Assembly: GCA_036478295.1 (NCBI GenBank)
Contig: JAZGDW010000009.1
Coordinates: 1 to 32,961, forward strand
Length of the DNA stretch: 32,961 bases
Direction of reading: 5' to 3'
DNA from: Candidatus Krumholzibacteriia bacterium
GTDB lineage: Bacteria; Krumholzibacteriota; Krumholzibacteriia; WVZY01
Shown: positions 14,534 to 24,326 of the stretch, piece after piece
How the letters are laid out: each line of letters starts with the position of its first letter
Position numbering within the stretch: position 1 is the stretch's first letter
Program-made: the position numbers and the translations under genes
Notes under the pieces: model-generated
Told to the model about the DNA's origin: nothing
Database searches by the model: none
Seen by the model: only the letters and a program-made list of their open reading frames with translations

Positions 14534-14609
14534 GGGCCCATAGCTCAGTGGTTAGAGCCGCCGGCTCATAACCGGCTGGTCCTAGGTTCGATCCCTAGTG
14601 GGCCCACCA
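14534..14609 (+). tRNA. tRNA with CAT anticodon, most likely tRNA-Ile2 (lysidine type)
   Basis: Cloverleaf with GGGCCCA/TGGGCCC acceptor stem, CCGG-CTCATAA-CCGG anticodon arm, GGTTCGATCC T arm and encoded CCA. It has a paired 1-72 and no initiator GGG/CCC anticodon stem; its position after rpoD matches E. coli ileX. Confidence 0.93.
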
Positions 14610-14617
14610 TTTTTGAG

Positions 14618-14649
14618 AGCCCCTCCATCACCGGAGGGGCTTTTCGTTT
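14618..14649 (+). terminator. Intrinsic terminator after the tRNA
   Basis: AGCCCCTCC-atcacc-GGAGGGGCT followed by TTTCGTTT. Confidence 0.8.
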
Positions 14650-14681
14650 GGCCCAGCCACCCCGCCCAGTAGCGGCCCGTT

Positions 14682-14875
14682 GGCGGTGCCGTTGAATGGT
14701 TGACGAGCCGTCCGCGGGAGCGAGCGAGGATCAGCCGCGGCCCGATTCGGGTCCTGTCAGCGAACAGCCCGTCCGTGCTCGCAGGCTGCGCGCGGCCGGG
14801 CACCCGTTCGCTACCACCCGCATCGGGCCGTGGGTAGCGGAGCGCGGCTCGGAGACCACTCAACACGGCACCGCC
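14682..14875. ncRNA. Candidate rod-shaped structured RNA or long imperfect inverted repeat (6S-like size)
   Basis: Nine nested, collinear complementary segments with an asymmetric internal loop; see findings. Confidence 0.4.
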
Positions 14876-14909: not shown

Positions 14910-14939
14910 TTGACTTGGTGAGGTGCGGTGAATTAGAGT
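14910..14939 (+). promoter_or_regulatory. Candidate sigma-70 promoter
   Basis: TTGACT (14910-14915), 18 bp, TAGAGT (14934-14939). Confidence 0.55.
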
Positions 14940-15057
14940 CTCCATTTCCGGTGCCGTCGGGCATCGGCAGGGGGCTGAGATCATCAGGATGCGGTTTTTC
15001 ATTCGAAATAATCGAGACTGCGCGACGGACGCAAGTTCCGGCTGCGCGGGGAACCTT

Positions 15058-15093
15058 TGAGCTTCTCTTGACGAAGAGAAGCTCATTTTTTTT
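15058..15093 (+). terminator. Strong intrinsic terminator directly before the zinc-ribbon gene
   Basis: Perfect 12-bp stem TGAGCTTCTCTT-gacg-AAGAGAAGCTCA followed by T8. Confidence 0.85.
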
Positions 15094-15101
15094 GGGTGGC
15101 A

Positions 15102-15818
15102 ATGACCGAAACTCAACGTGACCTGGGCGTGCTGGTAGCGGTTGCGAAGTTGGACGTGCGGCTCAACGGCTGCCGGCTCGAACTCGGACTTCTGCCGGAC
15201 AAGATCGCACGCCTGCGCAGGACGCTGGAGGACATCGTCAGCGCGGAAGCATCCGCGGAGGAACGCTTGAAAAGCGGGGTCCACGAGCGCCGCTCGCTGG
15301 AGCAACAAGTGGAAGACAACGCCGAGCGGATCAAGAAATACAAGACCCAGCTGATGGAGGTAAAGACCAACAAAGAGTACACGGCGATGCTTCATGAAAT
15401 CAGCCACGTTGAGAGTGATACCGACGCCAAGGAGGAACGCCTCCTCATTTTGATGGATGAGCTGGATCAGCTGACCGAGTCCAACGAAAAGGACGGGCAG
15501 GAGACCTCCAGGCGGAAGAAGGAGCTATCGGCGGAAAGCGAGCAGCTCGAGGAAAGGGTGCGCGCGCTGAACGAGACCATCGAGAAGCTGGAGGCGGAGA
15601 AGCCGGGAGTGCTTTCGGGGCTCAACCCGAGGATCAAGAGACAATACGAACGGGTTCTCGCCAAGATGAACGATTTCGCCGTGGCGAACGTGGAGGACGA
15701 TGTCTGCCAGGGATGCTTTGCGCGCATCCCACCCCAGACGTCAGTGGAAGTAAGGCAGAACGCCCGTATCATAACCTGCGAGGCGTGCGGCAGAATCCTG
15801 GTGCACTACGATGCCTAG
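15102..15818 (+). CDS. Coiled-coil C4-type zinc ribbon protein (DUF164 / CT398-HP0958-like)
   Basis: Long coiled coil with KTNKEY, then C-terminal CQGC...CEACGRIL. Start is ATG 15102 or GTG 15096. Confidence 0.9.
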   Translation: MTETQRDLGVLVAVAKLDVRLNGCRLELGLLPDKIARLRRTLEDIVSAEASAEERLKSGVHERRSLEQQVEDNAERIKKYKTQLMEVKTNKEYTAMLHEISHVESDTDAKEERLLILMDELDQLTESNEKDGQETSRRKKELSAESEQLEERVRALNETIEKLEAEKPGVLSGLNPRIKRQYERVLAKMNDFAVANVEDDVCQGCFARIPPQTSVEVRQNARIITCEACGRILVHYDA

Positions 15819-16404
15819 GGGTGACGGTCCCGCCACCGATCCGCTTATCGGCCTGCTGCAGGCACTGCAGGATGGTGCGGGCATCGACGGTGCTCTCCAG
15901 CGGGCGGGACTCGATGCGGCGTCCGCGCTCGACCTCCTCGACAGCTTGAAAGAAAGAGTCGCCGCCTGCACCGTACGGTCCTCAGGTGCCGCGCCCCGAC
16001 CGGGCCGTCTGATCGCGTATTCCGATGGAGCCTCACGCGGCAATCCCGGGCCCGCCGCGTGCGCCGTCATTGTTACCGATGGGGCCGGTGAGGAGCTCCT
16101 TCGACGATCGAAACGCCTGGGAGTGGCGACCAATAACGTGGCGGAGTACCAGGGGGTGCGCCTGGCTCTTGAGCTGTTCAAAGAGTTGGGCGCCGACGAT
16201 GTGGTGGTGAAGCTGGATAGCGAGCTCGTCGTCAAGCAGTTGAATAACGAGTTCAAAGTAAAACACCCGTCTCTGAAGCCGCTTTTCGAACAGACCAGGG
16301 CACTCATGCGGGAGATCTCCGCCGTTAAGATCCAGTACATACCGCGAGCGGAGAACAAGGCGGCCGATCGTCTGGCCAACGACGCGCTGGACGGAAAAGC
16401 GTGA
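15811..16404 (+). CDS. Ribonuclease HI family protein with N-terminal extension
   Basis: YSDGASRGNPGPA, TNNVAEY, DSELVVKQ, PRAENKAADRLAN. Confidence 0.92.
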   Translation: MPRGDGPATDPLIGLLQALQDGAGIDGALQRAGLDAASALDLLDSLKERVAACTVRSSGAAPRPGRLIAYSDGASRGNPGPAACAVIVTDGAGEELLRRSKRLGVATNNVAEYQGVRLALELFKELGADDVVVKLDSELVVKQLNNEFKVKHPSLKPLFEQTRALMREISAVKIQYIPRAENKAADRLANDALDGKA

Positions 16405-16406
16405 GC

Positions 16407-16435
16407 TTGCGTGGCTCGCGGGTTGGGTGTATCTT
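16407..16435 (+). promoter_or_regulatory. Sigma-70-type promoter of rnpB
   Basis: TTGCGT (16407-16412), 17 bp, TATCTT (16430-16435), just upstream of the RNase P RNA. Confidence 0.6.
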
Positions 16436-16447
16436 TCCCTCTGGATC

Positions 16448-16824
16448 GGGTGCCGAGCAGGACAGACGGCCGCGGGCGCCTTTCAGGTGTCCGAGGAAAG
16501 TCCGAGCTCCTCGAGGCAGGGTGCTGGCTAACGGCCAGTGGAAGTGATTCCAAGGAAAGTGCCACAGAAAAAATACCGCCGACGCCGCGGGCGACCGCGG
16601 CAGGTAAGGGTGAAAAGGTGAGGTAAGAGCTCACCGGTACCGTTGGTGACAGCGGTACCCTGGTAAACCCCACCCGGTGCAAGACCAAATAGGAGGGGAG
16701 AAGCCGCCTCGCTTCGCTCGACCCTCGGGTTGGTCGCACGAGGTGTCTGGTAACAGGCATCCTAGATAAATGGCCGTCACCCCTTCGGGGGAACAAAACT
16801 CGGCTTACGGACTGCTCGGCACCC
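16448..16824 (+). ncRNA. rnpB: RNase P RNA, bacterial type A
   Basis: GAGGAAAGTCCGAGCT, AGTGCCACAGAAA, GGTAAACCCCACCCGGTGCAAG, ACAAAACTCGGCTTA; terminal helix GGGTGCCGAGCAG/CTGCTCGGCACCC. Confidence 0.97.
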
Positions 16825-22354: not shown

Positions 22355-22363
22355 GAAATCGTT

Positions 22364-22447
22364 CCGCCAGGGGTATCCCGCGTGACGTCGGGATTGAGAC
22401 GATACCCTTGGAACCTGATCCGGTTGACACCGGCGTAGGGAAGGCGG
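22364..22447 (+). ncRNA. TPP riboswitch aptamer
   Basis: AGGGGT...TGAGA..ATACCCTTGGAACCTGATCCGGTTGACACCGGCGTAGGGAAG; P1 CCGCC/GGCGG; lies upstream of thiC. Confidence 0.96.
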
Positions 22448-22454
22448 CAAGTAA

Positions 22455-24326
<1,872 letters not shown>

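Follow-up and report, generated by a model that had tools for sequence, protein, structure and literature searches.

The question raised by this locus is why a gene should begin immediately behind a strong transcription terminator. The window analyzed here is a stretch of 32,961 nucleotides from a Candidatus Krumholzibacteriia bacterium, whose closest named relatives are Krumholzibacteriia or Latescibacterota. Its gene order is dnaG, rpoD, tRNA(CAT), the leader of interest, a gene for a CT398-type zinc-ribbon protein, RNase HI, rnpB and recJ (Table 1). The original prediction, made from the letters alone, placed a promoter and a perfect 12-bp terminator with a T8 tract before the zinc-ribbon gene and proposed that the RNA between them is an orphan riboswitch, an attenuator or a small RNA. 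The promoter is borne out: one such site is present in the window's leader, compared with 0.2±0.4 in shuffled sequences, and the pattern is shared with the 86 leaders and the leaderless group described below. The terminator is likewise where it was said to be, just before the zinc-ribbon start, and is conserved among relatives. Both candidate start codons, GTG at 15096 and ATG at 15102, were confirmed, the aligned start being the ATG, which is preceded by GGGTGG at 15094-15099.

Table 1. Positions of the leader elements and of neighboring features in the window.
Feature	Position	Strand	Remarks
tRNA gene, anticodon CAT	14534..14609	+	ARAGORN assignment Met
Palindromic repeat, multicopy	14680..14865	.	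Outside the attenuator
Sigma70-type promoter, TTGACT-18-TAGAGT	14910..14939	+	Predicted start ~14945-14947
Weak Shine-Dalgarno-like stretch for the uORF	14970..14979	+	Duplex -4.7 kcal/mol, with a generic anti-SD
uORF, 23 codons, MRFFIRNNRDCATDASSGCAGNL	14989..15060	+	Overlooked in the original prediction
Hairpin within the uORF (putative site of polymerase pausing)	15020..15047	+	
Intrinsic terminator, 12-bp stem and T8	15058..15093	+	Stem 15058-15085, T8 15086-15093
CT398/HP0958/MSMEG_4306-family coiled-coil zinc-ribbon protein	15102..15818	+	PF24481 and PF02591 above cut-off
RNase HI-type gene	15811..16404	+	Overlaps the zinc-ribbon stop
RNase P RNA (rnpB)	16454..16822	+	

The leader stretch is single-copy in its own genome, as judged by a genome search. 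The tRNA(CAT), which we take to be tRNA-Ile2, has a terminator-like hairpin of its own at approximately 14617-14645. The repeat that follows is REP/MITE-like, with a fold z of -4.86 and 52 genome copies at E<=1e-5, 26 of them at E<=1e-20 and 10 at contig ends. It is missing at the corresponding place in the same-genus locus L002, and motifs similar to it were seen by eye upstream in L006, L011 and L012. Upstream of the zinc-ribbon gene in L023 and L111, a structured insert, also recognized by eye, apparently splits tRNA(CAT) before the anticodon; presumably it resembles a group I intron. Downstream, inspection by eye of TTGCGT-17-TATCTT at 16407-16435 suggests that rnpB has its own promoter, and an ordinary TPP riboswitch (22359-22459) lies 5' of thiC.

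Orthologues of the zinc-ribbon gene were gathered from genomes and metagenomes, keeping loci that scored 160 bits or more and, in addition, the partial locus L250. An automatic promoter-plus-terminator filter passed 86 distinct leaders, which form 44 clusters at 64% identity and belong to five Krumholzibacteriia families (f1, f2 except for a leaderless group, f5, f8 and f9). Twenty-eight loci were set aside, 18 because they had no leader, eight because they were cut by a contig start and two because the finder had overlooked their terminators; 80 named loci, mostly Acidobacteriota, were excluded from the leader counts. The length of the leader to the end of the terminator is conserved (quartiles 131-146 nt), its sequence is diverged, and RNase H is the next gene in all 42 leaders with enough downstream sequence, the remaining 44 being too short. 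In the leaderless group a promoter of the same type lies 35-44 nt 5' of the zinc-ribbon start codon with no leader between them, and the promoter is therefore the zinc-ribbon gene's own. This supports that part of the original prediction which envisaged control of the zinc-ribbon and RNase HI genes in cis, by an attenuator preceding them. On a quick tree, the 13 leaderless rows group in a single clade (SH-aLRT 100) that lies within a set of 84 leader rows. It follows that the common ancestor of f1, f2, f5, f8 and f9 probably had the leader, which was then lost once.

Several observations were made on these loci in passing. The seventh to ninth bases after the -10 box (14946-14948 in the window) are pyrimidines in 97, 92 and 82% of the 86 leaders after cluster weighting, unlike 160 promoter-like matches in the window's genome, a set that includes chance matches; this bias may indicate that transcription starts at a pyrimidine or that the -10 box is displaced. 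There are also near-leaderless mRNAs, in which a start codon follows the -10 box by 9-16 nt, without a clear Shine-Dalgarno (SD) sequence: in one group it is that of the zinc-ribbon gene (L016-L019, L023-L026, L029, L030), and in the sister groups that of the upstream reading frame described below (L013-L015, L158, L159). Outside the five families, the 170 nt next to the gene contain no terminator in 97 of 141 loci; one is present in the other 44, mostly adjoining tRNA genes, and L209 among them was already in the leader set. In L118, L119, L124, L126 and the f3 loci L264-L291, terminator-like hairpins lie 40-130 nt before the gene and after tRNA-Val, some of them entered by CGA-bearing ORFs. 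They may be tRNA terminators or a related form of the leader. Finally, on the minus strand of contig C148 of the window's genome, near 481, there is a promoter-leader-terminator arrangement with a short ORF stopping 17 nt before the stem; we take the gene behind it to be infC.

The structural part of the original prediction fared less well. The helix proposed between 14945-60 and 15038-53, with 14 of 16 positions paired, does exist on paper (11 Watson-Crick and three G-U pairs), but its ensemble probability is at most 0.003. The alternatives described as mutually exclusive are present in the letters and unpopulated, the probability of CCGTCG/CGACGG rounding to 0, and in the full transcript no base of the terminator's 5' arm pairs upstream with P above 0.06. 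The statement that the leader matches no known riboswitch class was correct: at the gathering score Rfam returned nothing, and at E<=10 the best match had E 0.15, with all matches far below gathering. The proposed check of orthologous leaders for conserved structure revealed none upstream of the terminator (mean z -0.10±0.16, 44 clusters). As a whole the window's leader has a z of -3.09, a value that comes from the terminator, since, once the terminator is removed, folding is not better than that of shuffled sequences (z -0.94). In relatives, a modest hairpin signal was noted 10-50 nt upstream of the stem, with z -0.83 in each of the two lineage groups and 13 of 44 leaders scoring below -1.64 (six windows were tried). 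In the window this is the place of the hairpin within the uORF, a candidate for the kind of pause site that, in attenuators of the pyrBI type discussed below, lets the ribosome catch up with the polymerase.

What the leaders do have in common is an upstream open reading frame (uORF). In the window its stop codon, TGA, comprises the first three bases of the terminator stem, and it contains CGA codons at 15004-15006 and 15013-15015. Among the relatives, uORF starts were chosen by a fixed picking rule, 55-98 nt before the stem. A start codon was found in 83 of the 86 leaders, compared with 63±4 in shuffles, a count that includes close kin and is therefore not one of independent leaders. Of the frames read from these 83 starts, 74 contain no stop codon farther than 15 nt upstream of the stem (31±4 in shuffles, with a maximum of 44; 85 of 166 for the other frames), and the stop falls between -15 and +3 relative to the stem in 34 (6.5±2.4 in shuffles), kin again being included in both comparisons. 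In a later adjustment five starts were assigned manually and eight others were replaced by starts that gave an open frame, so that the statement that all 86 uORFs reach the terminator is true partly by construction. After this adjustment, the uORF stops 0-15 nt short of the stem in 25 of the 44 cluster representatives, and in the other 19 it enters or passes through the stem. One truncated metagenome locus, L149, has TAG at codon 8 where its near twin L014 has TTG, with the terminator intact; a second TAG further along its uORF was noticed by eye.

The peptide encoded by the uORF is barely constrained. Over 41 pairs pN/pS is 0.77, indicating weak purifying selection (p=0.024), substitutions are spread evenly over the codon positions (124/107/129), the position of the stop moves freely through the terminator among relatives, and the peptide has no match in NCBIfam. 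A loose N-R-x-C trend can be seen in the peptides, in which the AAT codon has a Bonferroni value of 0.07. Attenuators that depend on an arrest peptide are of the tnaC/ermCL type. For the present leaders that class was rejected, given the pN/pS and substitution values above and the lack of a conserved nascent-peptide motif.

A single codon, CGA, is conserved in place of the peptide. In the 44 representatives it occurs 62 times in the uORF frame and 16 and 18 times in the other two (p=4e-10, Bonferroni 2e-8). The corresponding counts are 56, 15 and 16 for the 38 representatives without a re-picked start and 57, 22 and 19 for alternative representatives, and the signal is present in both lineage groups (33/7/9 and 29/9/9). 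Stop-free dinucleotide shuffles contain 27±4.6 in-frame CGA codons compared with the 61 observed. CGA is located mostly in codons 2-13; 26 of the 44 representatives have exactly one, and it is lacking in frame in four of the 44 and in 13 of the 86 leaders. Across the same 44 representatives CGT, CGC, CGG, AGA and ATA show no enrichment, AGG reaches a nominal p of 0.044 only, and the second-ranked codon, AAT, fails correction. With CGA alone enriched after correction, general sensing of arginine or of ATA was rejected. A general bias toward rare codons at N-termini was likewise rejected, inasmuch as CGA is present in 39 of 44 leaders but only in 12.8% of the starts of ordinary genes and in 32% of intergenic ORFs arising by chance. 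CGA makes up 0.56% of the codons of the window's genome, in which seven promoter-terminator leaders were found; only that of the zinc-ribbon gene has an ORF ending at the stem together with two CGA codons.

How CGA is decoded bears on its possible role. A tRNA-Arg(ACG) pattern was detected in 167 of 208 genomes of the phylum and a TadA-like gene in 201 (87 above cut-off). The tRNA-Arg(TCG) pattern was found in only six of the 208, four of which look tRNA-like by eye, the window's genome among the four. Where tRNA(UCG) is absent, CGA is presumed to be read by ICG (PMC8629427), and in Salmonella CGA is reported to be slower than CGU and CGC (PMC4046918). Because most of the phylum has no detectable tRNA-Arg(UCG), it is likely that CGA is read slowly there, by inosine wobble. 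In the window's genome CGA may escape this limit, because a tRNA-Arg(TCG) gene is present. That gene lies at C158:46-122, at the edge of a 2,063-bp contig, and may be native, acquired or a contaminant.

A priori, a leader ORF and a terminator might be connected by a competing RNA structure, as in the classical amino-acid attenuators. In 41 of 44 naked leaders the terminator dominates, likewise in 41 of 44 under all the 5' truncations tried, and shuffled sequences are more complementary to the terminator arm than the leaders are (z +0.36±0.10, 44 representatives). Because equilibrium favors any terminator, the test was repeated on RNA without the 3' arm, attenuators from E. coli serving as controls (ivbL was unscored, its terminator not having been detected). 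In six E. coli amino-acid attenuators the antiterminator gain ranged from -8.1 to -15.3 kcal/mol, and their stop codons lie 24-64 nt upstream of the stem. The pyrBI leader ORF, pyrL, which runs through its stem, gave -5.2 kcal/mol (z -2.64). The Krumholzibacteriia leaders gave a mean of -4.3 kcal/mol, with one of 44 at or below -8 and z +0.51±0.11 relative to shuffles. Since pyrL itself scored z -2.64, z alone does not separate the attenuator classes. An attenuator of the trp/his type can be rejected, no 2:3 antiterminator and no codon run having been found in these leaders, with stops 0-15 nt before the stem or through it.

The pyrBI comparison is the closer one. Four pyrBI-type features were tested, and all four are seen here: an intrinsic terminator situated in the leader of the gene under control; a leader ORF that ends within about 15 nt of the stem or runs through it, which holds with the exception of L149; the lack of a competing RNA antiterminator (one of 44 leaders at or below -8 kcal/mol, compared with six of six classical attenuators); and a host in which transcription and translation are coupled, judged by proxy only. 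A short distance between stop codon and terminator is the published proxy for uncoupled transcription (PMC7858274). In the window's genome, 45 of the 47 gene-end terminators detectable among 2651 home-called genes lie at least 20 nt from the stop. The uORF stop, at distance 0, is thus unlike an ordinary gene end and like pyrL. In E. coli a terminator next to a stop codon is reportedly masked by ribosomes and almost fully repressed (PMC4824070), and at pyrL the coupled ribosome is described as preventing the terminator hairpin (PMC5021804). From all four features we infer that the leader works like that of pyrBI.

The explanation that we favor, and regard as probable on the sequence comparisons presented above, is that the leader is an attenuator of the pyrBI type: the terminator would be masked by a ribosome trailing the polymerase, that ribosome would be delayed by CGA, and read-through would report the race between ribosome and polymerase. 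A ribosome close behind RNA polymerase on the uORF would block the terminator hairpin, and transcription would then enter the zinc-ribbon and RNase HI genes; a delay at the CGA codon would allow the terminator to form. The uORF peptide itself would be irrelevant, the output being the relative speed of ribosome and polymerase. An engineered case is similar in that termination increases when a motif that slows translation is placed ahead of a terminator masked by ribosomes: with a stall motif before the pyrL terminator, reporter output is reported to fall 26-fold in an efp mutant (PMC5021804). That construct is a synthetic polyproline/EF-P reporter, whereas the Krumholzibacteriia leader would be a natural, lineage-wide version using CGA.

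Other readings of the same data must be weighed. One reverses the direction of control: read-through would occur when the ribosome is stalled or absent, by pairing of the SD region or the internal hairpin with the terminator's 5' arm, or through a protein, so that translation stress would induce the operon. The 5' arm is indeed anti-SD-like (GCTTCYC, ACCTCC), before the 3' arm exists it pairs with the uORF's SD region at P>0.5 in seven of 41 naked leaders, the window's included (P 0.94), and uORF attenuators induced by impaired translation have been described (PMC12218461). However, the gain in the window is only -2.2 kcal/mol, and the mean gains, -2.6 and -4.3 kcal/mol, are weaker than in shuffles (z +0.44 and +0.51) and compare with -8 to -15 in classical attenuators. 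Moreover, near-leaderless uORFs without an SD keep the same terminator, and stops 0-15 nt before the stem or through it place the finishing ribosome on the arm itself. We consider this reading unlikely. A reading that is quite unlikely is that the uORF and CGA merely set a constant fraction of read-through, scaling the operon down with no signal sensed. The prevalence of a single CGA rather than a run of sensing codons, the lack of a peptide motif and the loss of the leader on one occasion with the gene retained would all fit such an arrangement. A weaker promoter would presumably achieve the same more cheaply, though, and promoter, uORF, CGA and terminator have been kept together across five families despite divergence of the leader.

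The two remaining possibilities were contained in the original prediction. A stand-alone small gene, encoding a peptide or an approximately 150-nt sRNA and ending in an ordinary terminator, with the zinc-ribbon gene fed by leak-through, would account for the presence of a promoter and a strong terminator and for the weak purifying selection on the peptide; GraL, the terminated leader of greA, is reported to act in trans (PMC6829880). We judge it very unlikely, for neither sequence, fold nor peptide is conserved, 19 of 44 ORFs run into or through the terminator while ordinary genes in this genome keep theirs at a distance from the stop, and the leaderless group has the zinc-ribbon gene directly behind the promoter that drives it. 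A trans-acting role of the terminated RNA is conceivable but finds no support here. As for a ligand-binding orphan riboswitch, the layout of promoter, leader and terminator and the lack of an Rfam match are what suggested it, but no aptamer sequence or fold is conserved upstream in the 44 clusters, no antiterminator was found, and the proposed helices are essentially unpopulated and do not touch the terminator. The conserved features are a reading frame and a codon, and this proposal now seems extremely improbable.

If the leader is a pyrBI-type attenuator, the nature of the controlled protein may indicate what it is for. The protein has the coiled coil and C4 zinc ribbon that define its family, and profile searches matched it to CT398/CdsZ (E 4e-30), HP0958/FlgZ (4e-18) and MSMEG_4306 (1e-12); it misses the NCBIfam cut-off for CdsZ (83 compared with 275 bits). 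Synteny of the CT398 family with dnaG, rpoD, tRNA, rnhA and rnpB has been published (PMC3372290), and the M. tuberculosis homologue, Rv2229c, is reported to be essential (PMC5947703). Co-folding of the zinc-ribbon protein with the C-terminal 629 residues of its own RNA polymerase β′ subunit gave a score of 0.71, whereas the highest of three control scores was 0.00; 116 of 157 solved pairs and two of 215 mismatched ones reached the mark adopted. Agreement between runs is 98% of contacts or more, the partner has a pLDDT of 81 or higher and the contacts center on the zinc ribbon. The protein is thus predicted to bind its own β′, a result that speaks for binding and says nothing on function or pausing. 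According to a 2026 preprint, mycobacterial and chlamydial homologues are likewise predicted to bind β′, at its jaw and shelf, crossing the swivel module (10.64898/2026.07.15.738315).

Because the controlled protein is predicted to bind β′, feedback on the race between polymerase and ribosome is plausible. The most likely purpose, which we put forward tentatively on the basis of this model, would be negative feedback, the zinc-ribbon protein shifting the race that gates its own gene; there is a precedent for a polymerase mutation shifting an attenuator (PMC13236596). Alternative inputs would be arginyl-tRNA charging, inosine modification or growth rate. A more specific version, which we regard as speculative and rather doubtful, is a self-calibrating coupling gauge, in which the CT398-family protein would be a hitherto unrecognized elongation factor that lies across the swivel module, shortens pauses and gates its own gene. 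CGA, the one bacterial codon read by I:A wobble, would set a fixed ribosome delay. With more of the factor, polymerase would outrun the ribosome and terminate; with less, or with better inosine decoding, read-through would follow and RNase HI would be co-induced.

The leader can be compared with several known systems. It resembles pyrBI in a leader ORF that reaches or runs through the terminator and in its low antiterminator gain. In pyrBI the tuning acts on the polymerase, through pausing that responds to UTP, whereas here the conserved tuning element is a rare codon on the ribosome side and the target is not a nucleotide-synthesis operon. With thrL, trpL, hisL, leuL, pheL and ilvL it has in common a leader ORF before an intrinsic terminator and codon-specific sensing; it differs in the placement of its stops, in that no antiterminator was found and in the enrichment of CGA only. 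In those amino-acid attenuators stalling turns the operon on. A leader terminator before the gene for an RNA-polymerase-binding factor is also found at greA/GraL, where autoregulation was shown (PMC6829880), and at rimP-nusA, where it was proposed (PMC2965389). Unlike the present case, dependence on a uORF or a rare codon does not figure in the accessible parts of those descriptions, and polymerase binding is here only predicted. In a literature search that lay mostly outside subscription journals and excluded supplements, we found no account of this leader or of a masking attenuator tuned by CGA, and none of leader regulation in the CT398 family.

The CT398/HP0958/Rv2229c family is widespread and poorly understood. 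If the favored reading is correct, the leader would be a natural attenuator in which a single slow codon, and not a ligand pocket, a peptide motif or a run of amino acids, is the conserved sensing element. It would also provide an independent, regulatory clue that members of this family act on RNA polymerase during elongation as well as on sigma54.
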